64,000 nucleotides of DNA, from contig CAZSZE010000012.1 in the NCBI GenBank assembly GCA_964610645.1, forward strand, positions 5,095-69,094, read 5' to 3'. This document shows positions 22,158 through 61,916 of this stretch, piece by piece (position 1 is the first letter of the stretch; each line of letters starts with the position of its first letter). The stretch is from an uncultured Enterobacterales bacterium. Lineage in GTDB: Bacteria > Myxococcota_A > UBA796 > CAJQPC01. A model generated the notes under the pieces. The model worked only from the letters and a program-made list of their open reading frames with translations. It had not been told where the DNA came from and made no database searches. A program made the translations under genes and the position numbers.

Positions 22158-22254
22158 CACTTTGACCAAGGCGTTGCTGGGTGTGTCAGAGGTGTTCCCG
22201 TGTGGTTCCCTTGAAGGACACGTGCGGGCCGCAGACCTGGGAGAAGAAGTGGCA

Positions 22255-23664: not shown

Positions 23665-23775
23665 AGCGTAGCGACGAAGACGGAGTCTAAAGAGGCGAGC
23701 CGTCCTCGGGAGGCACCCGCAGCTCTTTGGCACTTCACTGCACGCCTGGCACCGGAACAGCGGCGGTAGGTTGCG

Positions 23776-30074: not shown

Positions 30075-30081
30075 GGAAACC

Positions 30082-30651: not shown

Positions 30652-30657
30652 GGCTGC

Positions 30658-33226: not shown

Positions 33227-33325
33227 AAACCCCACAGTTTTGCCCGGTGAGGCTGTGCGTTGTTTGCGCCAGGTGTGGTGGGCGGTAGGCACGAACCTGC
33301 TCGAATTTGGGTGTATGATGGGTGT

Positions 33326-45339: not shown

Positions 45340-45379
45340 GGGGCCTCCCTGACAGGTGTCGCATGCAGTCGCACCCGGG

Positions 45380-46381: not shown

Positions 46382-46384
46382 GAT

Positions 46385-47758
46385 TCAGAACCGGAAGTAG
46401 AGGAAGTCGCCGCGAAGGCCCGGCGAAAGCACGCAGCAGGCGGCGAGGCAGGCGGCAGCAAAGGCCGCGTAGAGCGCTGGATGGTTGGCCCGCTTGCAGA
46501 GGGCTTCCACCCCCCAGAAGAGAGAGAAAAAGAGGCCCCCCGACAGGAGCAGGGCAGCCGCCAGCCAGTCGCTCGGGCGAGGGGCGGTGCCAATGGCTTC
46601 CCCCAACCAGCCCAGGGAAGGTGCGCGGAAGATCGCCAGGCTCACAAAGACCACGAACAACGTCCCCAGGTGGCCGAGGAGGGCTTGCCCCTTGTGGGCC
46701 GGGACCCAGTGGGCATTCCAACCGATCCGATGTCCAATGAACAGGGCGAGGCCGTTGAAGAGGCCAAAGGCGACAAAGGTCCAGGCGGCCCCATGCCACA
46801 GTCCCGCCAGCCCCATCGTGGCCCCCATGGCCCAGGCGAACCGGGCAGCCGACGGTTGGCGAGACCCTCCCAGGGGAATGTAGACATAGTCCCGGAACCA
46901 CTGGGACATGGAGATGTGCCAGCGGCGCCAGTAGTCCGAGGGGGAGCGGGCTGCGTAGGGGGCCCGGAAATTCTCCACCAGGTCGATTCCCAGGAGCTTT
47001 GCGCTGCCCCGGGCAATGTCCGTGTAGCCGGAGAAATCCGCCAGAAGCTGGGCGCCGAAAATCAGGGCGCCGGTGGCCACCAGGAGCACCGAGGGGTCTC
47101 CGGCACTGAAGACCTTCTCCACCCGGGGGGCGAGGTTGTCGGCCACCACCAATTTCAGCGTGAAACCCCGCAACAGCAGCGGAGCGGCCCGCGCGAGGTT
47201 CTGCCAGCGCGGCGGGCGGTGGGCCTCCAGCTGTGGCAGCAGGCGACTCGCCCGCTCAATCGGCCCTGCCACCAGTTGGGGGAAGAAGGAGACAAACAGC
47301 GCGAAGTCCACCGGGTTTCGGCAGGGCTGGGTGCGGCCCCGGTAGACATCGATCGTGTAGCCCATGGACTGGAAGGTGTAGAAGGAGATGCCCACGGGCA
47401 GGACCACCCCCAGGGTGAAGGGGTCGAGATTCCACCCGACGGTGGCCAGGGCGGCTGCAGCGCTCTCCACGAGAAAGTCCAGGTACTTGAAGGTGGCCAG
47501 GAGTCCCAGGTTGGTGGCGAGGCTCACCCCGAGAGCCAAGCGGCGCTTCGCTGGCGCCCGGGCCATCCCCAAGGCAGCCAGGAAGTCGACTGTGGTGGAG
47601 GCCAGGAGCAGCCAGCAGAACCAGGGGTGGATCCAGCCGTAGAAGCCGTAGCTGGCCAGAACCAACAGGGCGTTCTGCCACCGCCGCCGGGGCAGAAGCG
47701 CGGAGCCTGTGGCCATGCAAGCAAGGAAGAGGAGGAAGACCTGGGAGTCAAAGCGCAT
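46385..47758 (-). CDS. MBOAT-family membrane-bound O-acyltransferase (AlgI/DltB-like)
   Basis: 457 aa and polytopic. The signature YWRRWHISMSQWFRDYVYIPLGG contains the conserved MBOAT His. Confidence 0.85.
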   Translation of the reverse strand: MRFDSQVFLLFLACMATGSALLPRRRWQNALLVLASYGFYGWIHPWFCWLLLASTTVDFLAALGMARAPAKRRLALGVSLATNLGLLATFKYLDFLVESAAAALATVGWNLDPFTLGVVLPVGISFYTFQSMGYTIDVYRGRTQPCRNPVDFALFVSFFPQLVAGPIERASRLLPQLEAHRPPRWQNLARAAPLLLRGFTLKLVVADNLAPRVEKVFSAGDPSVLLVATGALIFGAQLLADFSGYTDIARGSAKLLGIDLVENFRAPYAARSPSDYWRRWHISMSQWFRDYVYIPLGGSRQPSAARFAWAMGATMGLAGLWHGAAWTFVAFGLFNGLALFIGHRIGWNAHWVPAHKGQALLGHLGTLFVVFVSLAIFRAPSLGWLGEAIGTAPRPSDWLAAALLLSGGLFFSLFWGVEALCKRANHPALYAAFAAACLAACCVLSPGLRGDFLYFRF

Positions 47759-47770
47759 GAGGCGCGAGAA

Positions 47771-49435
47771 TCAGCCGGTGGCGAGCAGTTGACTGTCTCT
47801 TGAGTCTGGGCTCTGCAGGTCCCCCTGGAGGTCCAGGGCGAACCGTCGGGCTGCAGCGGAAGCCCGGCCTCCCTTGCCATTGTCGAGGGCCCATTGAGCA
47901 TGGGCGCAGAGGGAGGAGATCTGAAAGGACTGACCCAGTGCCAGGGCGAACCGTCGGGCGCCTGCTTCAAGAGCGTCGGCATCGGTCTTGTTCTCGGCGA
48001 ACCAGGTCTTGGCTCGATCCAGGTGCGCGATGGCCTGGGCAGCGGGTGCGGCGAGGGAGGCATCTGTGGCGGCCCGGCAGCCACCTCGCACCGCCTCCTC
48101 CAAGGCTTCGAACGTGCCCTCGGTGTTGAGGGCCCGGAGGGTGTCCAGGGAGAGCACGTTGGTGGTTCCCTCCCAGATGGGCAGGACCTGGGCATCCGCC
48201 AGGAGCCTTGGCAACCCCGTGTCCTCCACGTAGCCAGCGCCCCCGAAGCACTCGAGAGTCTCCGAGGCCACGGAGACGCCCTGTCGGCCCGTGGTGAGCT
48301 TTGCGATCGGAGTCAGCACCCGCGAGAGGGCTCGGTCAGCCTCCGTGGCGGCGTCTGCTTCAATTCGGCCCATGAGGCCCGCGCAATGCCAGGCCAGGTG
48401 AAAAGCGGCCTCGTAGGTGGCTTGCATCTGGGCGAGGGTGTCCCGGTGCAGTGGCTTCTGGTCGAGGGTGGCGCCAAAGGCCTGCCGGCGGGCGGAAAAG
48501 TCCCGGGCCAGGGCGATGCCCCGCCGCATGCCCCAGACCGCTGCCATGGCGTTCCAGGTGCGGGTCACGTTCAGCATGGGGGTGATGTTCCGAACGCCAT
48601 TGGTTGTGCCGTACACAAGCGTGGCAGCGCAGCCATCCATCTTGAGCTCGGCTGTGGGCACCTTGCGGGTCCCAAGCTTGTCCTTGAGACGGTGAATGGT
48701 GATGCCGTTCAAGGCACCGGCGGCATTTCGGGTCTCCAAGTAGAACAGGGCAAGTCCGCGTCCTCCATCGGGATTGCCCTCTGGACGGGCCAGGGTGAGG
48801 GCCATTTCCGAGGTGGTGGCGGAGGTGAACCACTTGGTTCCAAACAACTGCCAGCTCCCGTCCTGCTCCACGGCACGAGCCAGGGAGGTGCCGACATCCG
48901 ACCCCCCGGTCTTCTCGGTCATCCACTGACCGCTGGTCCAGGCGGTGGCGGGGTCTCGGGAGGTGAGGCGGGGCATGGCCCGTTCAATGAGACTCGCATT
49001 CCCGCTCTCCAGCAGGGTGCGGGCTGCGCCATCTGTCATGGCGAGCGGACAGGACCACACATCGAGGGAGGATTGCACCAGGGAGTTGAGGGTGAACTGG
49101 TGCAGCCGGCTGAAGGCGCCGTCCTCTTGCTCATAGGCACAAGCCACAAAGCCATGCTCCGCCGTCAACAGCTTCGCCCGCTCCCACAAGGGGCTGACGG
49201 TGACGAGGTCTACGCGATTTCCCCAGCCATCCCAGTTCTGCAAGACGGGCTCGTTCTCCCGATCTGCCAGCTGGGCTTCCAGGAGCGCACCCCCACCCAG
49301 ATCGCCCAGGTGGCGGTATTCCTCGGTGTGGCGGGCCAGAACCTCGGGGGGAAGCTGGCGTGCCAGGTACTCCTGCAGCAAGGAGTCGTCGTCGAATTGG
49401 TTGCCGAGGGACGGCGGTTCTTGAATGAAGTCCAC
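47771..49435 (-). CDS. Acyl-CoA dehydrogenase family protein (AidB-like); start uncertain
   Basis: An ACAD-type C-terminal motif is present (FGGAGYVEDTGLPRLLADAQVLPIWEGTTNV), and the length and N-domain are AidB-like. The GTG at 49435 was chosen because ATG starts further upstream would overlap the divergent gene at 49527. The range 49435-49546 is possible. Confidence 0.75.
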   Translation of the reverse strand: MDFIQEPPSLGNQFDDDSLLQEYLARQLPPEVLARHTEEYRHLGDLGGGALLEAQLADRENEPVLQNWDGWGNRVDLVTVSPLWERAKLLTAEHGFVACAYEQEDGAFSRLHQFTLNSLVQSSLDVWSCPLAMTDGAARTLLESGNASLIERAMPRLTSRDPATAWTSGQWMTEKTGGSDVGTSLARAVEQDGSWQLFGTKWFTSATTSEMALTLARPEGNPDGGRGLALFYLETRNAAGALNGITIHRLKDKLGTRKVPTAELKMDGCAATLVYGTTNGVRNITPMLNVTRTWNAMAAVWGMRRGIALARDFSARRQAFGATLDQKPLHRDTLAQMQATYEAAFHLAWHCAGLMGRIEADAATEADRALSRVLTPIAKLTTGRQGVSVASETLECFGGAGYVEDTGLPRLLADAQVLPIWEGTTNVLSLDTLRALNTEGTFEALEEAVRGGCRAATDASLAAPAAQAIAHLDRAKTWFAENKTDADALEAGARRFALALGQSFQISSLCAHAQWALDNGKGGRASAAARRFALDLQGDLQSPDSRDSQLLATG

Positions 49436-49526: not shown

Positions 49527-51059
49527 TTGAAGCGACCCCTTCGCATTGCGGTTGTGAGCTTGTACGCCCTGGAGAACAATGGCGTGCGGCACGTGGCTTC
49601 GAGTCTTCGACAGGGAGGCTTTGGCGTCACCGAGATCTACTTCAAGGACTGGGTGAACAACCGGTTCCCCTGGCCCGAGGAGCGAGAGGTCCAGGCGCTG
49701 TTGGACTTGCTTCGGGAGCGGCGCATCGAGGTGGTGGGACTTTCGGTGCGCGCGAGTGCATTTCACCGCTTGGCCAAGTACCTCACTGAGCGCATTCGCC
49801 ATGAGCTGGGCCTGCCCATTGTCTGGGGCGGCATGCACCCCACCTTCCTGCCGGAAGACTGCATTCCCATCGCGGACCACATCGCCATCGGGGAGACCGA
49901 CAATGCGGTGGTGGACTTCTTCGTGGCCATGGACGAGGGGGGCGACCTGCGTAGCTGCGCGAGCTTCTGGACCCGGGAAGGGGACACCGTCTACAAGAAT
50001 GGGCTGGCACGCTTGGTGGAGTTGGACGAGATTCCCTTCCGGGACTTCCACACAGGGGCAGACAAGTTCCACATCAAGGGGAACAAGGTCACAAAGGGCG
50101 ATCCCTTCATCACCAACCCCGAGTACACGCTCCTGGCCAGCCGTGGATGCCCCTTCTGGACCTGTACCTTCTGCTCGAACACCCTGACCAAGCCACTGTA
50201 CGAGGGGCTGGGCAAGAACTTCCGCATGCGCAGCGTGGAGAACCTGATCCAGGAGATGGAGTACGCGAAGAACCTGTGCAAGGACATCAAGATCGTCCGC
50301 TTTGACGACGAGGTCTTTCCCATTCGCAAGCGATGGATCGACGAGTTCTGTGAGAAGTGGCCCGCCCGCGTGGGCTTGCCCTTCGAGGTGCTGGTGGACC
50401 CGCGCATGGTGTCCTACGAGCCGCTGAAGAAGCTGAAGGGTGCGGGGCTGCGGGGCATCTGCATGGGCATCCAGGCCAACGACCGGGTGAACCAGGAGTT
50501 CTACAACCGGCACACCACCAACCAGATGATTCTCGACTGCCAGAAGGTCTTTCGGAAGGTGGGAATTGTCGCAAACCTGCAGATCATCTGGGATGACCCC
50601 TACTCCACGGAGCAGGACAAGGACGAGCTCTTTCACATGGTCATGGAGCTGGAGCGGCCCTTTGAGCTCTACCTGTTCGGGCTCACTGTCTATCCCAACA
50701 CCCACCTCGCCCGGCGGTTGTTGCGGGAGAAGTTGCTCACGGAGGACGACATCGAGGGCCTCAACACCCATGCCTTCGAGCAGTTCCGGGTGGACCTGAG
50801 CTATCCACGCCCCAAGGCGGACCAGCGGTGGCTCGCCCTCATCGTGCTGGCAAACAAGCCGTTTCTGCCCAAGAGCGCGGTCTGGAAGCTCTATGAGGAT
50901 GAGCGCTTCAAGGAGGACCCGCGTCCCCTCACGGCCATGGCCCAGGCTGCCAGCCTGGTGCGCATGGGGGTCTTTGCTGCAGGCATGGCCGCGCGAGGCG
51001 AGATGACGCCGTTGTTGATCAAGCGCTGGGTGAACCCGCGCTCTCTGGTCACCATGTGA
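49527..51059 (+). CDS. B12-binding-domain (class B) radical SAM protein with non-canonical CX4CX2C motif
   Basis: TTG start. The N-terminal Rossmann-like cobalamin-binding-type domain includes RIAVVSLYALENNGVRHVASSL...VVGLSV. The radical SAM core is LASRGCPFWTCTFCSN. 510 aa. Confidence 0.8.
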   Translation: MKRPLRIAVVSLYALENNGVRHVASSLRQGGFGVTEIYFKDWVNNRFPWPEEREVQALLDLLRERRIEVVGLSVRASAFHRLAKYLTERIRHELGLPIVWGGMHPTFLPEDCIPIADHIAIGETDNAVVDFFVAMDEGGDLRSCASFWTREGDTVYKNGLARLVELDEIPFRDFHTGADKFHIKGNKVTKGDPFITNPEYTLLASRGCPFWTCTFCSNTLTKPLYEGLGKNFRMRSVENLIQEMEYAKNLCKDIKIVRFDDEVFPIRKRWIDEFCEKWPARVGLPFEVLVDPRMVSYEPLKKLKGAGLRGICMGIQANDRVNQEFYNRHTTNQMILDCQKVFRKVGIVANLQIIWDDPYSTEQDKDELFHMVMELERPFELYLFGLTVYPNTHLARRLLREKLLTEDDIEGLNTHAFEQFRVDLSYPRPKADQRWLALIVLANKPFLPKSAVWKLYEDERFKEDPRPLTAMAQAASLVRMGVFAAGMAARGEMTPLLIKRWVNPRSLVTM

Positions 51060-52129
51060 TGCTGCCTCGCAGCATCGGGTTTGTACGGCGGGCGCGTGCG
51101 TGGCGCCACATCGCCACATCGGCCACGATGCGCCGGGTCAAGCCGGAGTGGGTTCCGCCACCCCGCGCTGGCCACTTGATCGTGAGCTACCGGTGCAACC
51201 TCAAGTGCGATGCGTGTCCCAGTTGGCAGGTGAAAGACCACGCGGACCTCACCACTGAAGAGTGGTTGCACCTTTTTGGCCAGTTGCGTTCCCTGGACCT
51301 CGTGAAGCTCCTCGGGGGGGAGCCTTTTGTCCGCAAGGACATTGTGGAGATCCTGGCCGGGGTTCGGGACATCATTGACCCCTATGTGTTGCAGCTCACC
51401 ACAAACGGAATGCTCACCAAGAGGGTCGTGGAGGCCATCCATGCGGTGGCCTGGCCCGGCTTGCAGCTGCGCATCTCCCTGGACGGAGTGGAGGAGACCC
51501 ACGACAAGATGCGCGGGGTGAAGGGGAGCTGGAAGATGGTGACCCGGACCGTTGCAGCGGCCGCGGAGCTCAAGGAGAAGTACGGCTTCACGCTGGGCAT
51601 CAACTTCGCTATCACCGACGACTCTGTGGAGGAGTTGGAGGAGATGATTGAATTTGCCGCGTCCATGGGAGCGGACCTCATCCCCGGTGTGTGTGTGGAT
51701 CCTTTCCTGGTTGGGACGGCGCCGCCCGAGGAAGAGCAGCAGCGGGTGATTCTCATTGACAACAAGGAGCGAGCCATGGCGGCCCTGGAGGATTCGCGGG
51801 TCGGCATTCGGCGGCAATTGCCTGTTCTTGATCACGTGATTTCCAGGTTCATCACGAGGACCACACTTCGGCAGCAGGTCATGGGGGAGAATTTTGGTTT
51901 TACCTGCCGGGAGCTGCGGGACCTGCTCTACATGTTGCCCAATGGAAGCGTCGTGCGCTGTGGGCTGGACCACCGGCCGATCGGGAACGTGCGAGAGCAG
52001 TCCTTTGATGACATATGGTTTGGCGAGGCAATCAAGCCCTTCCGCAAGAGCGTTGACGACTGCCCTGGCTGCATGCAGACCAGCGTGAAGATCTTAAGCC
52101 GACTTTATGGCGGGTGCTTGTTGTCTTAG
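51056..52129 (+). CDS. Radical SAM protein with Cys-containing C-terminal (SPASM/twitch-like) extension
   Basis: The GTG at 51056 (or the ATG at 51059) overlaps the upstream stop. Motifs: YRCNLKCDAC (CX3CX2C) and LLGGEPF (GGE motif). C-terminal cysteines sit in FTCRE...VVRCG...DDCPGC. Confidence 0.8.
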   Translation: MMLPRSIGFVRRARAWRHIATSATMRRVKPEWVPPPRAGHLIVSYRCNLKCDACPSWQVKDHADLTTEEWLHLFGQLRSLDLVKLLGGEPFVRKDIVEILAGVRDIIDPYVLQLTTNGMLTKRVVEAIHAVAWPGLQLRISLDGVEETHDKMRGVKGSWKMVTRTVAAAAELKEKYGFTLGINFAITDDSVEELEEMIEFAASMGADLIPGVCVDPFLVGTAPPEEEQQRVILIDNKERAMAALEDSRVGIRRQLPVLDHVISRFITRTTLRQQVMGENFGFTCRELRDLLYMLPNGSVVRCGLDHRPIGNVREQSFDDIWFGEAIKPFRKSVDDCPGCMQTSVKILSRLYGGCLLS

Positions 52130-52148
52130 TCGCCGTGATCTCCCGGGC

Positions 52149-52385
52149 CTACCGGTCTTCGAACGATTCACAGGCCAGACGCATGGTGGCATCGAAGCAG
52201 GCTTGTTGGTCCTGGTCCTGGGCAAGGGCAGCCCCCTCGTTGAGGCAGTCTGAGAGTTCGGTGCCCTCGCACCAGGTGTTGCAGGTCTCGGAATAGGCCA
52301 CGCAGTGATCAACGTTCTCGCCGCATCCCAGGAAGCTGGACAGCGACATCGCAACGAGAACGAAACCACCTGGCCAGGCCCGCAT
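52149..52385 (-). CDS. Small Cys-rich lipoprotein (78 aa), unknown
   Basis: The ATG at 52385 gives MRAWPGGFVLVAMSLSSFLGC (lipobox). Six further Cys occur in 52 residues (HC, TC, WC, DC, AC, AC). It is convergent with the radical SAM gene. Confidence 0.5.
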   Translation of the reverse strand: MRAWPGGFVLVAMSLSSFLGCGENVDHCVAYSETCNTWCEGTELSDCLNEGAALAQDQDQQACFDATMRLACESFEDR

Positions 52386-52519
52386 TTTCTGTCTCCTCGA
52401 GGGTTGTTCGAGCCTCCCACGCGCTGGTCTCGGGGTCAATCCCAGGCCGGGCAAACGGGCTTCAGCGTGGTTATTCCGTGGGCACGCCGAGAGGGTCTGA
52501 GCCCTCGGAGGAGCACACC

Positions 52520-53353
52520 TTGATCCTTGTCACTGGCACCAAGCGGTCGGGCACCTCCATGTGGATGCAGATTCTCGTGGCTGCCGGCCTGCCTTGGATT
52601 GGCAAGGAGTTTCTCGGGCGGTGGGACAAGTCGATCCGCGCGGCCAACCCGGAGGGGTTCTACGAGTCCCTGTTCCGCAGAGGCATCTTCTTTGCCACGA
52701 ACCCGGATCCCAGGACCGGTGCCTTTCTCTTCCCTCAGCAGTGCGAGGGTCACGCGGTCAAGGTCTTCATTCCGGGCCTTGTCCGCACCGATTACGCTTA
52801 CATCGGTCGCGTGGTGGCCACCCTTCGCCCCTGGCGGGACTACTGCAACTCCATTCAGCGCCTGTACGACATGGAGGACTCCTTCCTGGCGGACCTCCCC
52901 CCGGAAGAGGGACCCGACGGGAAAGTGGAGCAGCCTCTGGAGCGGGCGCTGCGGCAGCGACCGAAGATCCACCCGGCCCTGGAGTGGTGGTTCGAGAACT
53001 ACGACCTCATCCGGGACATTGCGACCCGGCGCTACCCGGTGAACCTGGTCAGCTATGACACGTTGCTGGCGGATCCGGGGGCTGTGATTCCCAAGGTGCT
53101 GGAGTGGATTGGGCAGGGGGATGCGGAGGCGGCCCTGGAGGTGGTGAAGCCCCGGCTGCGCACACAGGTGGACTCGGTGGCGGATGCCCCCGTGGACGAT
53201 GCAGCCGTGGAGGTCTTTGATGCGCTCCACGGGGAAATCGCCGAGAGCCAGTCCCTGTCGCGGGACCTGCTGGAGGCCATGAACGCCCTCAACAGTCGGC
53301 TGGAGGACGAGTGGTTGGGGGGCGAGCCGCGAGAGCGCACCACCGGGGGGTGA
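52520..53353 (+). CDS. Sulfotransferase-family protein (putative)
   Basis: The TTG at 52520 follows a GGAGGA Shine-Dalgarno sequence and gives (M)ILVTGTKRSGTSM, a PAPS 5'-phosphosulfate-binding-loop-like motif. LRPWRDYCNS is a 3'-phosphate-binding-motif-like segment. The track start is 52478. Confidence 0.55.
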   Translation: MILVTGTKRSGTSMWMQILVAAGLPWIGKEFLGRWDKSIRAANPEGFYESLFRRGIFFATNPDPRTGAFLFPQQCEGHAVKVFIPGLVRTDYAYIGRVVATLRPWRDYCNSIQRLYDMEDSFLADLPPEEGPDGKVEQPLERALRQRPKIHPALEWWFENYDLIRDIATRRYPVNLVSYDTLLADPGAVIPKVLEWIGQGDAEAALEVVKPRLRTQVDSVADAPVDDAAVEVFDALHGEIAESQSLSRDLLEAMNALNSRLEDEWLGGEPRERTTGG

Positions 53354-53355
53354 GA

Positions 53356-53817
53356 TCAGGAGGTGTCGAGGAGGCTGTAGATCAGCGGTTCACTCTCGCC
53401 GGCTTTCTGGCAGGAGAGGAGCACCTCGAGGGTGCAGACCATGGACGGGGACTCGTCCAGAAAGAGCACTTCGTAGCTGGAGGCAACTTCCTCGCTTGGG
53501 CGAACCCACACGCGCTGGGCGACGTTCTCGTGAGCGGTAGCGCTCACGTTCACGTCGGACCCGTTGTAATCAAATTCCAGGTCCTGGACGAAGCTGTCTG
53601 TGGAGAAGATCCATCCGGTGAGGTTGTCAACAACGGTCAGGCCCTTGTCCACGACTTGGGTGGTTCCTTCTGATTCGTCGACGCTGGTGAAGGGCATTTC
53701 ATCCCCGCGCATTTCAATCATCTGCCATTCGCCGACAATGGGATCCGAGGCGCAGCCTGGGGCCAGGCCGATGCAGAGGGTGGCAAGCATGGCAAGGGAG
53801 GGGGGGCGTGGCGTCAC
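53356..53817 (-). CDS. Lipoprotein (lipocalin-like?), unknown
   Basis: The lipobox is LATLCIGLAPGC, followed by GEWQM. The GTG at 53817 overlaps the upstream stop (GTGA); an alternative ATG lies at 53790. Confidence 0.5.
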   Translation of the reverse strand: MTPRPPSLAMLATLCIGLAPGCASDPIVGEWQMIEMRGDEMPFTSVDESEGTTQVVDKGLTVVDNLTGWIFSTDSFVQDLEFDYNGSDVNVSATAHENVAQRVWVRPSEEVASSYEVLFLDESPSMVCTLEVLLSCQKAGESEPLIYSLLDTS

Positions 53818-54365
53818 TTTCCCTTGCTCCGCTCGAAGGCCCAGTAGCCGCCTGCATTTCGATCGACGCAGTCAAGCAGAACGGGACCCTCGTGGAGCAC
53901 ACAGTCCAGGTTTAGCGTCTGTTCCGCGCTTTCCTCTGTCTCTCCCCCGTCCGAGTTCTCACAGACGCTGGTCTGGCCGTCGACGCGAATCTCGAAGATA
54001 CGCGGTTCCACCTCCACCAACGGGCCGGTCAAGGTGGCAGCGCAGCTCCTGCTGTAGAAAGTGGACTCCCCATCCTCTGTATAGGGGGAATACCCCTCGG
54101 ATTCGTCCAGGGTCAGGGTGAGGCTTGCGGTCCCGGATGCGGAGACCGCCAACGAACCGGTGATGCTGTAGGTGTAGCCCGTGTAGTAGCCATCGTAGGG
54201 GCCTCCGGTGATCGTGACGGCGGAGGTGGTGGCCAGGGGCAGGCCCACGTCGTTCATGACGGTCAGGTCCCAGTTGCCCTCGATGCCTTCGGTGTCCCCT
54301 CCACAGCCGGTGAAGCCGACGCTTAGCGCTGCGAAGGCGGGAATGAGTCGTTTGGGCGGGCGCAT
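53814..54365 (-). CDS. Lipoprotein with Tyr-rich and acidic segments, unknown
   Basis: The ATG at 54365 gives MRPPKRLIPAFAALSVGFTGC (lipobox), followed by GNWDL. It contains GGPYDGYYTGYTYS and DESEGYSPYTEDGESTFY. Confidence 0.5.
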   Translation of the reverse strand: MRPPKRLIPAFAALSVGFTGCGGDTEGIEGNWDLTVMNDVGLPLATTSAVTITGGPYDGYYTGYTYSITGSLAVSASGTASLTLTLDESEGYSPYTEDGESTFYSRSCAATLTGPLVEVEPRIFEIRVDGQTSVCENSDGGETEESAEQTLNLDCVLHEGPVLLDCVDRNAGGYWAFERSKGK

Positions 54366-54587
54366 TGGGTTGGAGAATGTACCACGGGATTGAAGGTCTC
54401 CCGGGGCGCCGGGCAACCTCTTTTGGACGGTCAGAGAGGTGGGTGGATCTGCTTGGGAAACTGTGCTAAATCACCCAACCACGTGCGGGCGGCGCCAAGA
54501 AACGGCCCTTAGGGCCTGGAATCGCGCTGCTGAACCCGAGGAGGGGCTGGAGTGGATCTTGCAACCTCCTATCCACGACTGGAGTCC

Positions 54588-55571
54588 ATGAGGTTCTTTC
54601 ACGCCCGCGCTCGTGCAGTCGCCAATGTAGGCGCTTCTGCGTGTCTGTCTCGAATGGGAATCGTCTCTCCTCCGCGATTCGCACACATTGCGCTTCGTGT
54701 TGAAGAATCGAGTGGGTCGTGGGATTCGTTGGAACTCCACCAGTGGGAAACCGTCTTCACTCGTCTCCGTGGGCTGGATGTGGCGAAGATCGTGGGGGAT
54801 GATCCTTTCGCGCGGGAGGACATCGAGGATCTCCTCTACATGCTGTTCCGGGAGGTTCGGCCGGCGTTGTTCCAGGTGGGCACGCCGGGAGGGTGGCCCA
54901 CGCGTGTGGAGTCTTTTGCGAGGCGTCTGAAGTGGCCAGGACTGCACCTACGCGTGCGAATGGAGGGTTGGCCCGGTGTAGATGCCCCAGGGAGGGAGAC
55001 GCTGGATCGCCTTGTGGCCCTCAAGAAGGGGGGCGCCCAGTTTTCCCTTGGCCTCAACTACCACCTCACGCCGGACACCCTCGAGGAGATGAAGGAGGCT
55101 GAGGCCTACTGCCAGAAGAAGAACGTCGGCTTCTTTCCGGGGATCCCCGTTCACTCCGTGGTCTTTCAATGTGGGCCGGGAGATCTGGCTGAACACACCG
55201 TGGATCCGGCTTGCGCTGCGGCTCTCTTCTCGAGCCTCAAGGTCCAGGACGACCAGCGGTATGGGCGCGTCGCAGGGAAGCTGTGGGGGAGCGCGAATCG
55301 AAAGCAGTTCGGCGGTCTCGTGGAGCAGGGGCCCAACCAGCGGTTTCGCTGCCAGGAGTTGGGGGCGCTGGTGTACGTGATGCCGGATGGCAGCGTGGTG
55401 ACTTGTGGACACCGGTTCAGGCCTCTTGGTTCACTTCTTGACCAGGATCTGGAGGCCTTGTGGGGGTCTCGGGAAGTGAAGGACGAGCGCGTTCAGATCC
55501 GAGATTGCCCCGGGTGCTTTCAAATGAGTGTGCAGCTTGCCAGCGCACTGTACGGGGGGGAGTGGTGGTAG
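54588..55571 (+). CDS. Paralog of the 51056-52129 radical SAM protein lacking the CX3CX2C cluster motif (degenerate radical SAM-like protein)
   Basis: Colinear similarity to 51056-52129 is seen in FFHARARAV vs FVRRARAW, VMPDGSVVTCG vs MLPNGSVVRCG, and RDCPGCFQMSVQLASALYGG vs DDCPGCMQTSVKILSRLYGG. However, VEESSGSWDS replaces YRCNLKCDACPSW, and GDDPF replaces GGEPF. Confidence 0.65.
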   Translation: MRFFHARARAVANVGASACLSRMGIVSPPRFAHIALRVEESSGSWDSLELHQWETVFTRLRGLDVAKIVGDDPFAREDIEDLLYMLFREVRPALFQVGTPGGWPTRVESFARRLKWPGLHLRVRMEGWPGVDAPGRETLDRLVALKKGGAQFSLGLNYHLTPDTLEEMKEAEAYCQKKNVGFFPGIPVHSVVFQCGPGDLAEHTVDPACAAALFSSLKVQDDQRYGRVAGKLWGSANRKQFGGLVEQGPNQRFRCQELGALVYVMPDGSVVTCGHRFRPLGSLLDQDLEALWGSREVKDERVQIRDCPGCFQMSVQLASALYGGEWW

Positions 55572-55669
55572 GGGGTCCTGGGTCGATTGGAGAACAGGGG
55601 CTTCTTTCCCTTGGCAGGTTTGCGGCTGCATTGGCCGGGGACCCGGCGGGATCCGGATTGAAGGAGGGG

Positions 55670-57310
55670 ATGGAGGTTCTTCGCCACGAGACGGGCGCCA
55701 ACCGGTGTGAGCTGTTTCTGGTCGACGGGCAGGGCGATGAGCTTCTCCTGGTGGAAGAGGTGTCGCGCCGGCCCCGCCACAGGGGTCCCGAGCGCCTGCA
55801 ATTGCAGGATGGTCTGGAGGGGCTGTCCGTCGAAAGGGGGGAGCCTCTTTGGGCCGATATCACACCGGTTGGGCTGGCTCTTGAGCGTGAAGACCTGGTG
55901 GAAGCCGACTTCGCAGCGGCTCTTTGTGTGCCGGTTTGCCAGGAAGGAGAGGCTGTGGGGGTCCTCCAGCTTGTCTGGCGTCGGGATCTCTGGGCCGAGG
56001 CCAGAAGGCAGATCGGCAGGTTCGTCAATTGTGCCATGCCCCTCCTGGCGGCCCAGGTGATGTCCACACAGCAACGAGGCCTGGTTGATCTGCTTCTCTC
56101 TTGTCGAAACGGGCCACCAGACCTTCAAGACCTGATCCATGCATTCAAGGACGTCAGTGGGGCTGACATCGCGACAGTTCATTTGCTGGCGCAAGATGGA
56201 GAGGGAGTCGTGGATCGGGACTCCACATCCAGCCACTTCCTCACATGCGATGGCCTGGAGGCGGGGCTACTCTCCGAGTGCCCGCGTGAAACAGGGAAAG
56301 GCCGCTGCACGGGAATCAGTGGGCCAAGGAGAAAGTGGGATCGACGCTGTCGCTCCTTGGGCCGGGAATTTCAAACGGTGCTGGAGATTCCTCTCGTAGA
56401 GGAGGGGACAGTGCTGGGCGTTGTTTTCTTGGGGTGGAAGGAGGGAGATCGCGTCTCCCCCCTCGCTGTAGCAACTCGTGTCAGTCTTCTCGCGAGGTGC
56501 GCAGCCCGGCTTGTCTCCGCTCGAAGGCTTGAGGCTGTGCCGTGCGCCCCCGCCTCTGCGATGCCGGTTGCGGAAGAAAGGCGCCTCGAAATCCGGGTTT
56601 TGGGTGGGATGAGCGTTTTCGTGGACGGACGGCTGGTTCCACCACGAGCGTTTGGGAGGTCCAAGTCCTTGGAGCTTCTTGCCCTTTTGGCAATGCGAAG
56701 AGGCCGGAGAGCAAGCCGGGAGTACCTGTGGGAGGCGCTCTGGCCGGATGCAACTCCCGAGTCCGGACTCTCTCGGCTGCATGTGACCGTGCATGCTCTG
56801 AGAAAGGTGATTGAGCCGCAACGCGAAACCCGAGGCTGGCATCACATTCTGGAGGAACAAGGCAGCTTCTGGTTGCCCATGGAGACCGTGAGCCTGGACC
56901 TGGTTGTTTTTGAGGATCTTCTCTCCAGCGCCCGTCGAAAGAGGGGCACCGGGGAGTCACTTGCGGAGTGTCTGGACCTCGCTGACAGTGCAATCAGGCT
57001 TTGTCACGGCGAGCTGCTGGGGGATCGGTTGGAGTGGGAGTGGGCTGATCCCTGTAGGGTGGCCTTTTCCGACAAGCTGCGCGACGCATTTGGATTTGCG
57101 GTTGCCTCTGCCATGCAGCTGGATCGACCCGACCTTGCAGTCTCCTATCTTCGAGTGGCCGTACAGGCGCAGCCATTTCGCGAGGACTATCGAGAAGAAC
57201 TGGTTCGGATTCTGCTGAAAGACGAGAGAACCAGCGAGGCAAACCGGGTGTTGGGTTCCTGGAGGGAATTCAACAAGATGGAAGAAGTCTCTATGCTCAT
57301 CGATGGGTGA
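55670..57310 (+). CDS. GAF-GAF-wHTH-BTAD (SARP/AfsR-DnrI-like) transcriptional regulator
   Basis: The ATG at 55670 follows an AAGGAGGGG Shine-Dalgarno sequence; upstream GTG starts around 55562 cannot be excluded. It has two GAF-like regions. The OmpR-type wHTH is LEIRVLGGMSVFVDGRLV...LELLALLAM...REYLWEALWPD. The BTAD-like helical domain includes FEDLLSSA...QPFREDYREELVRILL. Confidence 0.7.
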   Translation: MEVLRHETGANRCELFLVDGQGDELLLVEEVSRRPRHRGPERLQLQDGLEGLSVERGEPLWADITPVGLALEREDLVEADFAAALCVPVCQEGEAVGVLQLVWRRDLWAEARRQIGRFVNCAMPLLAAQVMSTQQRGLVDLLLSCRNGPPDLQDLIHAFKDVSGADIATVHLLAQDGEGVVDRDSTSSHFLTCDGLEAGLLSECPRETGKGRCTGISGPRRKWDRRCRSLGREFQTVLEIPLVEEGTVLGVVFLGWKEGDRVSPLAVATRVSLLARCAARLVSARRLEAVPCAPASAMPVAEERRLEIRVLGGMSVFVDGRLVPPRAFGRSKSLELLALLAMRRGRRASREYLWEALWPDATPESGLSRLHVTVHALRKVIEPQRETRGWHHILEEQGSFWLPMETVSLDLVVFEDLLSSARRKRGTGESLAECLDLADSAIRLCHGELLGDRLEWEWADPCRVAFSDKLRDAFGFAVASAMQLDRPDLAVSYLRVAVQAQPFREDYREELVRILLKDERTSEANRVLGSWREFNKMEEVSMLIDG

Positions 57311-57384: not shown

Positions 57385-57401
57385 GCAAGGGGAGGTTGCC
57401 G

Positions 57402-58277
57402 ATGTTCCAGACCTCATCTTCCGGGCGGGCAGCGGGCTGGAGCGCTTGGGCTCTTCTCTTGGGGGCGTCCTTGTGGTCTGGCATCGCCTTGGCCGCTGAC
57501 GCAGAACAGGAGTTCGCGATTCGTTGTGCGGCCTGTCACTCCATCGGGGAGGGCCGGCGAGTAGGACCCGACCTGCAGGGGGTTCTGGATCGTCGCACTG
57601 AGGATTGGGCTGTCGCTTTTGTTCAAGACTCCGCAAAGGTGGTCGCGTCGGGGGATGCCGAGGCGGTGGCCTTGTTCACCGAATTTGCCCAGATTCCGAT
57701 GCCGCCTCAGGATTTGTCCCGAGAGGTGATTCTGGACCTTCTTGAGTTGACCCGGGTGGCGAAAGACCCTGGGAGCACTCCGGATGCCCCCGCTGCCGAG
57801 GAAGCTGTAGCCGTGATGGGCGATGCTGATCGGGGACAGGACTTGTTTCAGGGAATTCAGCGATTCGAAAAGAAAGGCCCGAGCTGCATTTCTTGTCACA
57901 GCGTCCGAAATGACGCAGTCATCAGTGGGGGCTTGTTGGGGCCGGAGCTGACCGAGACGCTCAAGGGGATGGATGCTCCCGCTGCCGGCCAGGCCAAGGT
58001 GGGAGGGTTTGTGCAGGCACAGCCGATCATGCAGCGGGCCTATGTGGACCACGCTCCCACAGACCAGGAGGTCGCGGATCTGGCTGCCTTTCTGGTCCGA
58101 ATCAACAAGGACCAGGCTCGCCATATGCCTGGTGACACCGGGCGAAAGCTGGCGATGAGTGGGGCGGTGGGGACGGTTCTCCTTCTGGGCTTGTACAGCG
58201 CCATTTGGAGAAAGCGAAAGAGATTCAGCGTGAACGAGAGCATCTACGATCGACAGATCAAGTCATCTGACCTCTAA
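57402..58277 (+). CDS. Membrane-anchored dihaem c-type cytochrome (NarC-like position upstream of narG)
   Basis: The ATG at 57402 gives MFQTSSSGRAAGWSAWALLLGASLWSGIALA (signal peptide). Haem motifs are CAACHS and CISCHS. The C-terminal TM helix is AMSGAVGTVLLLGLYSAIW. Confidence 0.7.
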   Translation: MFQTSSSGRAAGWSAWALLLGASLWSGIALAADAEQEFAIRCAACHSIGEGRRVGPDLQGVLDRRTEDWAVAFVQDSAKVVASGDAEAVALFTEFAQIPMPPQDLSREVILDLLELTRVAKDPGSTPDAPAAEEAVAVMGDADRGQDLFQGIQRFEKKGPSCISCHSVRNDAVISGGLLGPELTETLKGMDAPAAGQAKVGGFVQAQPIMQRAYVDHAPTDQEVADLAAFLVRINKDQARHMPGDTGRKLAMSGAVGTVLLLGLYSAIWRKRKRFSVNESIYDRQIKSSDL

Positions 58278-58301
58278 GACACAAGAAACACGGGGAACAT
58301 C

Positions 58302-61300
58302 ATGGGCTGGATCAAGGACATCATCTCTCCGGACACCCGAAAGTGGGAGGAGTTCTACCGAAATCGGTTTCAACACGACCGAATCGTTCGGAGCACGCAC
58401 GGGGTGAATTGCACGGGGGGTTGTTCCTGGCAGATCCACGTAAAGGACGGAATCGTCACCTGGGAAACGCAGCAGCTTGACTACCCGCTGCTGGAGGATG
58501 GGCTGCCTCCCTACGAGCCCCGTGGATGCCAGCGGGGAATCTCCTATTCCTGGTATCTGTACAGCCCACTTCGTATCAAGTATCCGCTGATTCGCAGTGC
58601 CTTGCTCCAGGCATATCGTCAGAAAAAGGCTGAGCAGGGAGGCGACCCCATGAAGGCGTGGGTCGCCTTGCAAGAGGATGAGGATGCGCGTCGCAACTAC
58701 CAGAAGGCTCGGGGCAAGGGTGGCTTCCTTCGGGCAACTTGGGATGAGGCGCTGGAAATCGCAGCGATGGCCAACCTGTATACGGCGAAGAAGTACGGGC
58801 CAGACCGCGTAATCGGGTTTTCCCCAATTCCAGCGATGTCCATGCTGTCCTATGCGGCGGGATCCCGCTTTCTGCAGCTCTTTGGCGGCATCAATCTGAG
58901 TTTTTACGACTGGTATTGTGACCTGCCCACCGCCTTCCCCGAGATCTGGGGCGAACAGACCGATGTGGGGGAGAGCGCCGACTGGTACAACGCCAAGATG
59001 ATCGCCGACATGGGGGCTTGTCTGAACATGACACGCACCCCGGACTGTCACTTTTTCGCAGAGTCGCGCCACAATGGCACCAAGGCTGTGGTGTTTGCGC
59101 CCGACTTCAGCCAGGTCTGCAAGTATGCGGACCAGTGGGTTCCGCTTCATGCGGGAAGCGACGGAGCCTTCTGGATGGCGGTCACCCACGTGATCCTCAA
59201 GGAGTTTCATCACGAGCAGAAGACGCCGTTCTTCCTGGACTACGTAAAGCAGTATACGGACAGCCCCTACCTTGTGAAGCTGGACAGTGAGGGGGGGCAC
59301 TTCAAGCCGGGTCGTCTTCTCCGGGCGTCGGACCTTCCCGCCTACCAGGATGTGGAAAAGGGCGAGTGGAAGTTCGTCAACATTGATGAAACGACAGGGC
59401 AGCCCGTGGTTCCGAAGGGGAGCTCCGGTTCCCGCTGGGATGGCTCCGGCAACTGGAACATGAAGTCGGAAGACGCAGTCAATCATCAACCCTACGATCC
59501 GGTCTTGTCCCTTCTTGGACGGGGCGGTGGCGTCGCACAGACGGAGTTCACCGAGTTCGGGTTGGACAACAAGGTGCTCCGCGGCGTGCCTACCATGGAG
59601 ATCCAAACGGTCAACGGACCCCAGACCGTCACCACGGTCTACGATCTGATGATGGCCCAGTATGGGGTGTCTCGAGATCTTCCGGGTGACTACCCGAGTG
59701 ACTACTCCGACAAGGACGCTGCATACACCCCGGCCTGGCAGGAGATCTTCACCGGAGTGGCCACCGACACGGTGCTGCAGTTTGCCCGTGAGTGGGCGTC
59801 GACGGCTGAAACCACCGGCGGCAAGTGCATGATTATCATCGGGGCTGGCATCAACCACTGGTACCACTCAAACCTGATGTACCGGGCCGGCGCCATGGCG
59901 CTCATGCTCTGTGGCTGTGTCGGAAAGAACGGCGGTGGGCTGAATCACTACGTGGGACAGGAAAAGCTGGCTCCCGTGGATTCATGGGGTTCGATCGCCT
60001 TCGCCAAGGACTGGAAGAAGGCTCCCCGCCTCCAGCAGGCTCCCATCTGGCACTACATCAACACTTGTCAGTACCGCTACGACGGACAGTTTTCACGCTA
60101 CAACACCGTCCCCGACAATGACATGACGAGGATGCATACGGCGGACAGCATCTTCAAGTCTGTGCGAATGGGTTGGATGCCGTTCTACCCCCAGTTCAAG
60201 CAGAACTCGCTGGAGCTGACAAAGGAGGCCCAGGAAGCTGGTGCAGGCACGGACGCGGAGATTGAGAACTACGTGTTGGAGAAGCTCAAGTCCAAGGACC
60301 TTGAGTATGCTGTGTCGGATCCGGAGGCGCCGGAGAACTTTCCGCGGCTCTGGTACATCTGGCGAGGCAACGCCATCATGGGGTCGATGAAGGGGCATGA
60401 GTATTGCCTGAAGCACTACCTGGGAACCCACTCCAATGCCATCGGACAAGACAGCGAGGAGCATCCCGCTGAGGTGAACTGGAGAGAGGAAGCGCCCGTC
60501 GGAAAGATGGACCTGATCGTCAACCTCAACTTCCGCATGGACAGCTCGGCCTTGTACTCGGACATCGTCCTACCTGCAGCCTCCTGGTACGAGAAGGCTG
60601 ACCTGAACAGCACGGACCTGCACTCGTTTATTCATCCTCTTTCGGCGGCCATTCCACCTGTTTGGGAGTCAAAGACGGATTGGGACATCTTCAAGGAGCT
60701 TGCCCGCTGCACAAGTGAGGCGGCAAAGAAGTATCTACCTGAGCCTCAAAAGGACGTGATTGCGGCACCCCTCTCCCACGACTCGCCAGGAGAGGTGAGC
60801 CAGCCTGAGATCAAGGACTGGTACCTGGGCGAGTGTGAGGCTGTGCCCGGTGAGACAATGCACAAGATTATCGTGCAGGACCGGGACTACACCGCCCTGT
60901 ACGACGAGTTTATCGCCTTGGGCGAGAACGTCCGAAAGAACGGACTTGGGGCCCACGGGAACCACTTTCAGTGCGAGGACGAGTATGACGCGATGGTGGC
61001 GTCAAACCACTTCCCGGTGGAGCGGCGGGGTGACAAGGTGTTCCCCTCCCTGAAGGAAGACAAGTGGGCTGCAAACGCGGTGTTGCACCTTTCTTCACTC
61101 ACCAACGGGAAGCTCACTGTCCGCGCATACGAGAACGCGGCAAAGAAGACGAGTCTGCCACTGGTGCCGCTTGGAGCGGGGAGTGCGGACGTGCGGATTC
61201 GCTACGAGGATCTTCAGGCCCAACCACGGCGTTACAACTCCTCCCCGTTGTGGTCCGGGTTGATGCATGAAGGCCGCGCCTACTCTGCGTACACCTACAA

Positions 61301-61916
61301 CGTGGAGCAACTGGTTCCCTGGCGGACACTGACCGGCCGACAGCACTTTTATCTGGACCACGAGATGTACCTCGCCTACGGCGAGAACCTCCCGACATTC
61401 AAGCCATCACCAAAGCCGGCAGCGTATGGGGACTTGAAACAGACGATCAAGGAGGGTGACGCAAGAATCCTGAACTGCCTTACCCCACACGGCAAGTGGC
61501 ACATCCATTCAACCTACATGGAGAACCACCGCATGTTGACCCTGTCTCGAGGCTGTGAGCCCGTCTGGATCAGCGAAAAGGATGCAGAGGCCTTGGGCAT
61601 TCAGGACAACGACTGGTGCGAGGTGTACAACGACCATGGCGTCTACTGCACTCGCGCTGCGGTCAGCGCTCGGATTCCGCTTGGCGTGTGCATCGTGTAC
61701 CACGTCCCCGAACGCACTGTTGGGATTCCGAAATCCCAGGTTCGCGGGGGGAAACGAGCAGGTGGGCACAACAGCTTTACCCGGATTCACCTGAAGCCGA
61801 ACTTCCTCGCCGGGGGCTACGGGCAGTTCAGCTACCACTTCAACTACTGGGGTCCAATCGCTCCCCAGCGGGACACCCATGTGATCGTCAAGCGCATGGA
61901 CAAGTTGGAATGGTAG
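58302..61916 (+). CDS. narG: Respiratory nitrate reductase alpha subunit
   Basis: 1204 aa. The N-terminal FS0 motif is [11 protein letters not shown] (H-x3-C-x3-C). No twin-arginine signal is present. Colinear NarG hallmarks run throughout ([26 protein letters not shown]). Confidence 0.95.

Follow-up and report, generated by a model that had tools for sequence, protein, structure and literature searches.

We analyzed a 64,000-nt stretch of contig CAZSZE010000012.1 (the window), and in particular an interval of about 7.8 kb within it, from position 49527 to position 57310. Eight genes lie in this interval. They encode a B12-type radical S-adenosylmethionine (SAM) enzyme, a second radical SAM enzyme, a small Cys-rich lipoprotein, a putative sulfotransferase, two small putative lipoproteins, a radical-SAM-like protein that has lost the SAM cluster motif (called the pseudo-rSAM here), and a regulator with GAF and SARP-type domains. 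The window is GC-rich (GC fraction 0.57-0.69), so mechanical lists of open reading frames (ORFs) are crowded. All eight genes of the original prediction are real, and are at or near the positions first given for them: their third-position GC fractions (0.64-0.86) are like those of genes, and overlapping antisense ORFs are not gene-like. The original prediction had also grouped these genes into a single neighborhood centered on the radical SAM enzymes and controlled by a pathway-specific SARP regulator. This grouping failed when gene order was compared among genomes, as only four gene families recur across 58 related loci.

A scan of species-representative genomes with the B12-type enzyme gave 55 loci, and the overall comparison set was about 80 related loci. 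We determined synteny first with 17 window proteins as tblastn queries against 66 loci, and then by all-against-all clustering of the ORFs from 58 loci. The four recurrent families were the B12-type radical SAM enzyme (52 loci), the second radical SAM enzyme (of the twitch type), an NmrA-like NAD(P)H-binding protein, and a PP-loop protein. The next most common family was in no more than 10 loci. Among uncultured Myxococcota, this four-gene module is conserved in more than 50 species-level genomes, usually in the same layout: the NmrA-like gene is divergent and directly upstream of the B12-type gene, the twitch-type gene is directly downstream, and the PP-loop gene is convergent just after it. 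The twitch-type gene was directly 3' of the B12-type gene in nearly every locus where the latter was at least 58% identical to that in the window and downstream sequence was available. The NmrA-like gene (product about 420 aa, 36-90% identity) was divergent and directly upstream in the approximately 40 loci that were long enough. Where the locus is compact, gaps of 90, 25, and 60 nt separate the genes, too little for a precursor-peptide gene.

The B12-type enzyme (510 aa) has an N-terminal B12-binding domain (Pfam PF02310, 46.6 bits; cut-off 32.1) and a Radical_SAM domain (PF04055, 40.1 bits; cut-off 29.5). These two domains define the class-B radical SAM enzymes and bear out the original assignment of this protein. 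The cluster motif is CPFWTCTFC (residues 208-216), which is CX4CX2C (C208, C213, and C216) and not the canonical CX3CX2C. The three cysteines and their spacing were invariant in 59 of 59 homologs, including distant ones with 33-43% identity. Because CX4CX2C still supplies three cysteines, an Fe-S cluster is likely despite the non-canonical spacing, and the protein is a putative holder of a SAM cluster. There are more than 120 clusters of homologs with 56-94% identity, all from uncultured metagenome-assembled genomes (MAGs), most of them labeled Myxococcota or Deltaproteobacteria. The best matches to NCBIfam models were to HpnJ (73 bits against a cut-off of about 577), the ladderane-type lipid-biosynthesis B12 radical SAM model TIGR04072 (67 against 360), ApyD, and BchE (56 against 481), each a small fraction of its cut-off; HpnR scored 37 bits against 650. 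A sequence search of the PDB recovered HemN alone (E = 6e-4). Using an AlphaFold2 model (pLDDT 84.5), Foldseek recovered TsrM, MgmA, AprD4, OxsB, TokK, and CysS (E = 5e-20 to 1e-14, TM-score approximately 0.6), and MiaB, MtaB, and RimO were also among the fold matches.

The start codon of the second radical SAM gene (ATG at 51059) overlaps the stop codon of the B12-type gene in the sequence TGATG. This overlap makes translational coupling of the two genes plausible, in agreement with the original prediction. The product (about 356 aa) matches Pfam Radical_SAM (61.5 bits) and SPASM (39.2 bits). Its cysteines are the CX3CX2C of the SAM cluster (C47, C51, and C54) and an auxiliary-cluster site (C284, C302, C336, and C339) with the invariant spacing C-x17-C...C-x2-C; all seven were invariant in 48 of 48 distinct orthologs. 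Using the published definition of the twitch domain (PMC9012708), this protein is of the twitch type, having CX3CX2C and, in a shortened SPASM domain, a single auxiliary-cluster site. It has CX12GX4C and CX2C only, and not the full seven-Cys SPASM motif (CX9-15GX4C...CX2CX5CX3C...C). The Cys-bearing C-terminal extension of the original prediction is thus present, and is refined to a four-Cys, twitch-like half of a SPASM domain. The best NCBIfam matches were PTO1314, NirJ, AhbD, and PqqE (73 bits against a cut-off of 381), with HpnH also among the top matches and MoaA lower down (TIGR02666, 59.9 bits against 284, covering the radical SAM core alone). The mycofactocin model scored 63 bits against 265, and none of these models reached its cut-off. 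A sequence search of the PDB gave remote matches, to SkfB (the best) and PqqE, and did not retrieve BtrN. There was no Pfam match to RRE or PqqD in the protein, and its N-terminal extension of about 40 aa had no Pfam match. The statement that these radical SAM enzymes could not be mapped to a known pathway was therefore upheld, as the hidden Markov model searches placed neither of them at or above the cut-off of an NCBIfam equivalog.

The NmrA-like protein of the window (428 aa) matches Pfam NAD_binding_10 (54.9 bits), and its only NCBIfam match is to HpnA, below the cut-off. In the PDB it matches, through its N-terminal half, the NAD-dependent epimerase/dehydratase 3dhn (the best, E = 4e-6) and flavin/biliverdin-IX-beta reductases. 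The PP-loop gene is absent from the 64,000-nt window and is seen in relatives, where its product is 267-290 aa long in Myxococcota and 57-93% identical across the clade. No Pfam or NCBIfam model matched the PP-loop protein above threshold, and a PDB sequence search gave no meaningful match. An SGGLDS motif and the cysteines of CCLGC...C (a CxxC and a distal Cys) are invariant. With the AlphaFold model (pLDDT 81.8), the best Foldseek match was YcfA (TM-score 0.77-0.80, E = 3e-8), followed by carbapenam synthetase, argininosuccinate synthetase (ArgG), LarE, and QueC. The SGGxDS motif and the predicted adenine-nucleotide alpha-hydrolase fold identify it as a probable PP-loop ATP pyrophosphatase.

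The association of three of these enzymes is not limited to Myxococcota. In Lentisphaerota there is a tight four-gene operon for a 268-aa PP-loop protein, a twitch-type radical SAM enzyme (40% identity), a B12-type radical SAM enzyme (43% identity), and a membrane protein of the LPG_synthase_TM/flippase-like type. The 268-aa protein is homologous to the Myxococcota PP-loop protein (35% identity, E = 1e-50), so the three-enzyme association crosses phyla. The module, which is widely conserved in uncultured Myxococcota and also occurs in Lentisphaerota, joins known types of enzyme in a combination that is new. Literature searches on the gene combination, on DUF7411, and on pseudo-SAM proteins found nothing relevant. 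More distant homologs of the B12-type enzyme (33-42% identity) had heterogeneous contexts (GNAT, U32 peptidase, AKR-ferredoxin fusion, GDSL lipase) and were uninformative. Two of the loci with 37-42% identity illustrate these contexts: L061, with GNAT, a U32 peptidase, and another radical SAM protein as neighbors, and L065, with an AKR/ferredoxin fusion, a GDSL lipase, and a DUF7411/QueC-like PP-loop protein 6 kb away.

An insertion of six genes has displaced the NmrA-like gene of the window to a position 7 kb upstream of the B12-type gene. This insertion is present only in the window (and identical contigs L009-11), L004, L012, L066, and L076-79; in other loci the NmrA-like gene directly adjoins the B12-type gene. 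The inserted block, limited to four related lineages, may by itself be a cassette for envelope modification. Its FG-GAP gene (42450-44474) has two paralogs (40% and 53% identity) among the FG-GAP/ASPIC repeat proteins encoded at 2300-3865 (+), 7065-9131 (-), and 33251-34957 (+). Just upstream of the NmrA-like gene there are two tandem, overlapping genes for flavoproteins resembling amine oxidases and phytoene desaturases (37154-40484, +).

Features of the window discussed in the text. Coordinates are positions in the 64,000-nt window.
Feature	Position	Strand	Evidence
Class-B (B12-binding-domain) radical SAM enzyme, 510 aa	49527..51059	+	Pfam, fold, invariant CX4CX2C
Twitch-type radical SAM enzyme, ~356 aa	51056/51059..52129	+	Pfam Radical_SAM and SPASM, seven invariant Cys
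Cys-rich putative lipoprotein, 78 aa	52149..52385	-	Signal peptide, FLGC lipobox, six further conserved Cys
Sulfotransferase-like P-loop protein, 277 aa	52520..53353	+	Sub-threshold Sulfotransfer_3
Two putative lipoproteins, 153 aa and ~184 aa	53356..53817, 53814..54368	-	ORFs, 4-nt overlap
Rearrangement junction	54385..54593		Switch in blastn homology
Cluster-less radical-SAM-like protein (pseudo-rSAM), 327 aa	54588..55571	+	Paralogy to the twitch-type enzyme
GAF-(GAF)-OmpR/BTAD SARP-type regulator	55565..57310	+	Pfam GAF, Trans_reg_C, BTAD
Di-heme cytochrome c and NarG, start of nar operon	57396..61916	+	Cytochrom_C Pfam, TIGR01580
NmrA-like/NAD_binding_10 protein, 428 aa (third module member)	41118..42404	-	Pfam, synteny
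Six-gene insertion: FG-GAP, TM2/SHOCT, 169-aa and 333-aa unknowns, DltB-like MBOAT, AidB-like acyl-CoA dehydrogenase	42450..49435	-	Pfam, NCBIfam
Unit A, conserved module	49527..52129 and 41118..42404		
Unit B, species-restricted island	52149..54368		
Unit C, proposed to belong with the nar genes	54588..57310		

The four genes that follow the radical SAM pair have a much narrower distribution than the pair itself. The 78-aa protein is a convergent, Cys-rich putative lipoprotein as originally predicted, with six Cys in addition to that of the lipobox conserved in three species; homologs were found only in L004, L012, and L076-79. The sulfotransferase-like gene is real, and the family assignment is weak: the match to Sulfotransfer_3 is 21 bits (cut-off 27) and covers the P-loop only, and a family profile matched human sulfotransferases in the PDB at E = 0.065-0.9, in the C-terminal region. 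The ORF extends from 52478, and 322 family representative clusters all align from query residue 15, indicating a likely start near 52520. This gene adjoins the radical SAM pair only in the three closest species. The two co-oriented lipoprotein genes overlap as described; the lipobox of the first (53356-53817) is imperfect, with P at -2, and neither product has a Pfam family. Against NCBIfam, the lipoproteins and the sulfotransferase-like protein also stayed below every equivalog cut-off. They were considered as tandem paralogs, and this was rejected because there was no detectable similarity between them. Homologs (70-74% identity) were found only in L004 and L012. Co-occurrence of the gene set across genomes, originally put forward as a test, is thus not borne out for these genes, which are confined to three species (the window organism and the two relatives closest to it). 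In those two relatives, lipoB is followed by the PP-loop gene (283 aa) and pheT. Judged by this distribution, Unit B is a recent, species-restricted island with putative secreted or lipoprotein products and a sulfotransferase-like enzyme.

There is a rearrangement junction immediately after the island. By blastn, the window is homologous to L004 and L012 up to 54376-54384, and from 54594 onward to L067, the locus of the sister species that is linked to nar. An independently assembled 2.2-kb contig from another sample (L080) spans the junction and is 99.8% identical to window positions 53517-55704. The rearrangement is therefore real, and an assembly chimera between lipoB and the pseudo-rSAM gene is ruled out.

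The ORF of the pseudo-rSAM gene extends from 54552 to 55571, with a likely start at 54588, and its product matches Pfam SPASM alone. As originally predicted, it is a paralog of the twitch-type enzyme (30% identity, E = 2e-45) without the Fe-S cluster motif: the CX3CX2C is deleted, and all four C-terminal cysteines are kept. There were only seven homologs among 5.8 billion proteins. The CX3CX2C is also deleted in the homologs P0122, P0123, and L081, whereas two relatives, P0125 and P0126, have it intact. This intact subfamily is closer to the pseudo-rSAM (about 41% identity) than the adjacent twitch-type enzyme is (30%), and a recent duplication of the latter was rejected on these grounds. No NCBIfam model matched at E = 0.01 or better, including the pseudo-SAM/SPASM model TIGR04347. 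Because cluster-less homologs are 42-49% identical, the cluster-less state is old; the maintenance of the ORF and of the four cysteines in them suggests that the pseudo-rSAM is a retained, non-catalytic Fe-S protein.

The pseudo-rSAM gene is followed by the regulator gene. The regulator has an OmpR-type Trans_reg_C domain (PF00486, 29.3 bits; cut-off 26.2) and a BTAD domain (PF03704, 42.8 bits; cut-off 22.1), as in SARPs. Of the two GAF domains originally described, one is clear and the second is below threshold (GAF_2, 16 bits, E = 0.012). The ORF extends from 55460, with a likely start at GTG 55565, where it overlaps the pseudo-rSAM stop codon by 7 nt; the same overlap is present in the sister species. 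The pseudo-rSAM, SARP, cytochrome c, and narG genes follow one another on one strand with gaps of no more than 85 nt, and NarG matches TIGR01580 with 1432 bits (cut-off 1084). The placement of a di-heme cytochrome c gene ahead of narG is unusual; this protein has weak similarity to SoxX, and the operon runs to about position 64000. A scan for promoters and terminators found no more sites than in shuffled sequence.

Neither the pseudo-rSAM nor the SARP gene was present within 10 kb of the related B12/twitch loci in more than 50 module-bearing species, so co-occurrence across genomes also failed for these two genes. The closest homolog of the pseudo-rSAM (72% identity) is in the MAG that contains L012 (the sister species), on a different contig from the B12/twitch pair. 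The gene order on that contig (L067-69) is three MopE genes, an intact extra twitch-type gene, the pseudo-rSAM gene, the GAF-SARP gene, the cytochrome c gene, narGHJI, and a gene for an MFS transporter. The three consecutive MopE-type (Cu-binding) proteins upstream of the extra twitch-type gene are giant (L067, 1212-8620). From this arrangement, the pseudo-rSAM and the SARP are most likely a sensor/regulator pair for the downstream respiratory operon, and not an activator of the radical SAM genes. Other relatives of the paralog, both intact and cluster-less, adjoin genes for QhpG/LodB/CmlS-like flavin monooxygenases (L081, 282-4389; L070, 2561-4963). In L081 the cluster-less relative is translationally coupled to a gene resembling a divergent subunit I (COX1) of heme-copper oxidases, with a QhpG/CmlS-like flavoprotein gene near it. 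These neighbors hint that the subfamily of the pseudo-rSAM originally matured protein-derived cofactors.

The explanation that we favor, with a probability a little better than even, is that three evolutionary units have come together in the interval, as a mosaic, and that one of them (Unit A) is a metabolite-tailoring module. This is because only four families recur, the island is limited to three species, and the pseudo-rSAM and SARP genes are on another contig in the sister species. The original prediction had allowed that the adjacency might be fortuitous, with neighbors that are not syntenic in related genomes and with radical SAM enzymes of well-characterized housekeeping families. The neighbors are indeed not syntenic, and the radical SAM enzymes do not fall into such families.

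From the gene content, synteny, motifs, and fold similarities described above, we infer a class of substrate, an order of reactions, and a regulatory role. Unit A comprises the B12-type and twitch-type radical SAM enzymes, the NmrA-like NAD(P)H-binding protein, and a YcfA/LarE-like PP-loop ATPase. In the window it has been split by the insertion of six genes before the B12-type gene and of four genes after the twitch-type gene, and the rearrangement has taken the PP-loop gene out of the neighborhood. The module may tailor a small, non-peptide metabolite, most likely of the nucleotide, nucleoside, or sugar/cyclitol type and possibly lipid-linked. The YcfA/QueC-like fold and the very high conservation favor a nucleotide or cofactor as substrate, and an envelope lipid is favored by the flippase-like protein of the Lentisphaerota operon and by the weak best matches, which are of the Hpn type. 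The twitch-type enzyme would carry out a radical two-electron oxidation by means of its fully Cys-ligated auxiliary cluster, as in BtrN, and the B12-type enzyme would either methylate an unactivated carbon or perform an AprD4-like dehydration. The NAD(P)H-binding protein would reduce the product, as in the AprD4/AprD3 system, and the PP-loop enzyme would adenylate a carbonyl and exchange its oxygen for sulfur or nitrogen. Unit C, the pseudo-rSAM and GAF-SARP genes, would belong with the downstream cytochrome c gene and narGHJI. A more daring proposal, which we regard as doubtful, is that the four-gene set makes a previously undescribed S- or N-substituted, C-methylated, or deoxygenated metabolite, cofactor, or nucleoside that would mark a class-level clade of uncultured Myxococcota and also be made by some Lentisphaerota, and that the pseudo-rSAM is the Fe-S redox-sensing partner of a GAF-SARP that controls nitrate respiration.

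The interval could be read instead as one cluster switched by the SARP, in which the radical SAM enzymes mature a Cys-rich peptide or lipoprotein (a product like the RiPPs, which are peptides made by the ribosome and modified after translation) or work with the sulfotransferase to modify a component of the envelope. The genes are adjacent and tightly packed, the gene for the small Cys-rich lipoprotein is convergent right behind the twitch-type gene, SPASM and twitch enzymes are often peptide maturases (SkfB is the best PDB match here), and SARPs are classically cluster-situated activators. We consider this reading very improbable, given that the radical SAM pair is in more than 50 species and the lipoprotein and sulfotransferase-like genes are in three, and that the sister species has its SARP and paralog genes on a separate contig. 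The twitch-type enzyme also does not have the features of a RiPP maturase: as originally predicted, no leader-peptide gene, RRE, protease, or exporter was found at the locus, and every RiPP model of NCBIfam scored below its cut-off. The lack of room for a precursor gene in the compact loci, together with the lack of an RRE, makes a peptide substrate for the module unlikely. The Cys-rich protein itself, with a Sec/lipoprotein signal and an even number of Cys in its mature form, looks like a typical disulfide-bonded exported protein. Another way to connect the units would be for the pseudo-rSAM to act as a dead partner or scaffold of the active twitch-type enzyme, with the GAF domains of the SARP sensing the product of the module, so that Unit C would be tied to Unit A. 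The auxiliary cysteines are kept, the intact ORF in homologs that are only 42-72% identical to one another suggests selection, and the only twitch-type gene in the window is the copy 2.4 kb upstream of the pseudo-rSAM gene. Against this, the pseudo-rSAM is nearer to P0125 and P0126 than to that enzyme, relatives of the P0125/P0126 type adjoin genes for QhpG/LodB-like flavoproteins and not for B12-type enzymes, and the module occurs without either Unit C gene in the species noted above. A tie of this kind seems to us quite unlikely.

Two alternatives concern what the module acts on. Its target might be a lipid of the envelope or a glycan linked to lipid, which it would modify much as HpnH, HpnJ, HpnA, and HpnL tailor the hopanoid side chain. 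Consistent with this, HpnJ and TIGR04072 are the first and second NCBIfam matches of the B12-type enzyme, HpnH is among the top matches of the twitch-type enzyme, HpnA is the only match of the NmrA-like protein, and the Lentisphaerota operon ends in the gene for the LPG_synthase_TM/flippase-like protein, a family that we take to include HpnL. There are also envelope genes near several loci (MBOAT in the window; GT2, YfhO, and GtrA in L005). The scores, however, are 5- to 20-fold below the cut-offs (73 against 577, 59 against 225, and 20 against 368), the neighbors vary among loci, and the enzyme nearest in fold to the PP-loop partner has a nucleotide as its substrate; no squalene-hopene cyclase was seen, although no search was aimed at one. 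We rate an envelope substrate as rather unlikely. We would say much the same of the proposal that the module installs a housekeeping type of RNA or cofactor modification, such as a thiolated and methylated nucleoside. Its enzymes parallel the classes of the queuosine route (PP-loop QueC, radical SAM QueE, NADPH-dependent QueF, and B12-dependent QueG) or the chemistry of TtcA and MiaB, and the fold matches agree with this: YcfA, LarE, and QueC are nearest for the PP-loop protein, with SGGLDS, CxxC, and the distal Cys invariant, and MiaB, MtaB, and RimO are among those for the B12-type enzyme. Conservation across the clade is very high (B12-type enzyme 56-94%, PP-loop protein 57-93%), and the pair occurs once per examined locus, in an ordinary chromosomal context next to pheT. 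However, no RNA-modification family of Pfam or NCBIfam was matched, no TRAM, THUMP, or PUA domain was detected, the narrow phyletic range would be unusual for a core RNA modification, and the Lentisphaerota operon includes the flippase-like protein.

Several points weigh against the mosaic of three units with a metabolite-tailoring module. Every chemical step in the proposed scheme is an analogy from a fold or a motif, and the fold matches of the B12-type enzyme (TM-score approximately 0.6, 13-19% identity) cannot separate functions among class-B radical SAM enzymes. Several loci (e.g., L013, L016, and the clade with 58-62% identity) have no PP-loop gene within 10 kb. It could also be that the island genes were taken on as substrates or partners specific to this lineage. 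The window organism and the sister species are close relatives (their B12-type enzymes are 94% identical), so the synteny of the pseudo-rSAM, SARP, and nar genes in both is weak evidence of a functional link, and the third cluster-less homolog, L081, has no SARP or nar genes beside it. Finally, an intact twitch-type gene is upstream of the pseudo-rSAM gene on the same strand in both species, 188 nt away in the sister and 2.4 kb away in the window, so there may be a tie between Unit C and the twitch-type enzyme.

The majority of radical SAM enzymes have no known function (PMC9012708), and uncharacterized families of them are common; the one described here is sharply delimited and experimentally approachable. 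What was an odd neighborhood is now replaced by a defined and testable four-gene unit with sharp sequence signatures, which has a compact form (e.g., in L005) suited to heterologous expression and a second, independent occurrence in another phylum. If its product were identified, one more biosynthetic route would be added, and a widespread lineage of uncultured Myxococcota might gain a chemotaxonomic marker. The locus also illustrates that adjacency in one genome can mislead, as the SARP and the degenerate paralog go with a nitrate-reductase operon. This pair offers a small and testable case of what appears to be a catalytically dead radical SAM protein kept beside a regulator. Farther upstream in the window (20510-32433) there are genes for a sigma-54 activator with a receiver domain, a carbamoyltransferase, a GDSL lipase-like protein, and a COX1 subunit with a cbb3-type cytochrome c; this region looks like ordinary chromosomal context.

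The components of the module can be compared with several known systems. The twitch dehydrogenase BtrN has four Cys as ligands of its auxiliary cluster, which is the proposed electron acceptor in a two-electron oxidation (PMC9012708). The window enzyme resembles BtrN and MoaA in having a CX3CX2C radical SAM cluster and one auxiliary-cluster site, and differs from them in that the similarity is confined to the radical SAM core, in its conserved N-terminal segment of about 40 aa, and in its constant partnership with a B12-type enzyme. The four auxiliary cysteines of BtrN have the same C-x17-C...C-x2-C spacing as those of the window enzyme. The B12-type enzyme shares with the class-B cobalamin enzymes TsrM, MgmA, TokK, CysS, and OxsB an N-terminal B12-binding Rossmann domain and a radical SAM barrel; TsrM, MgmA, and TokK are methylases. 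It differs from these enzymes and from AprD4 in sequence (13-17% identity), in having CX4CX2C in place of the usual CX3CX2C, and in its conserved C-terminal domain of about 130 aa, which has no assigned function. AprD4 has the class-B fold and is not known to use cobalamin. It is a diol dehydratase that works with an NADPH-dependent reductase partner (PMC5461906). The module is like AprD4/AprD3 in the genomic pairing of a B12-type radical SAM enzyme with an NAD(P)H-binding protein of the reductase type.

In the ATP-dependent synthesis of 6-thioguanine, YcfA, a thioamide-forming enzyme, adenylates the carbonyl of GTP and then adds the sulfur of cysteine (PMC12494993). The PP-loop protein of the module is like YcfA-YcfC, LarE, and QueC in its SGGxDS motif and in a predicted fold that can be superimposed on YcfA. 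Unlike YcfA-YcfC, it is only 18-20% identical in sequence and has no gene for a YcfC-like pyridoxal phosphate lyase beside it, and unlike YcfA, LarE, and QueC it carries the invariant CCLGC...C. We presume that these cysteines are comparable to those of the Fe-S-dependent PP-loop enzymes TtuA, TtcA, and [4Fe-4S]-LarE. The Hpn genes offer a parallel to the whole set, with a radical SAM enzyme (HpnH), a B12-type radical SAM enzyme (HpnJ), an NAD-dependent epimerase-like protein (HpnA), and, as in the Lentisphaerota operon, a flippase-like protein (HpnL). The module differs from them in scores that are far below the equivalog cut-offs and in the addition of a PP-loop enzyme; we know of no PP-loop enzyme in Hpn clusters. 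The family described by TIGR04347 is a precedent for proteins that resemble radical SAM/SPASM enzymes and lack the Cys motif of the SAM cluster, whereas the paralog in the window is from a different, small subfamily with seven detectable homologs. In staphylococci, narGHJI is controlled by NreA, a nitrate receptor with a GAF domain, and the window likewise has predicted GAF sensor domain(s) adjoining a nar operon. In its OmpR-type winged helix and BTAD domain the regulator resembles SARPs of the AfsR/DnrI type, and it differs from them in its N-terminal GAF domain(s), an uncommon architecture for SARPs, and in its coupling to a cluster-less radical-SAM-like protein.

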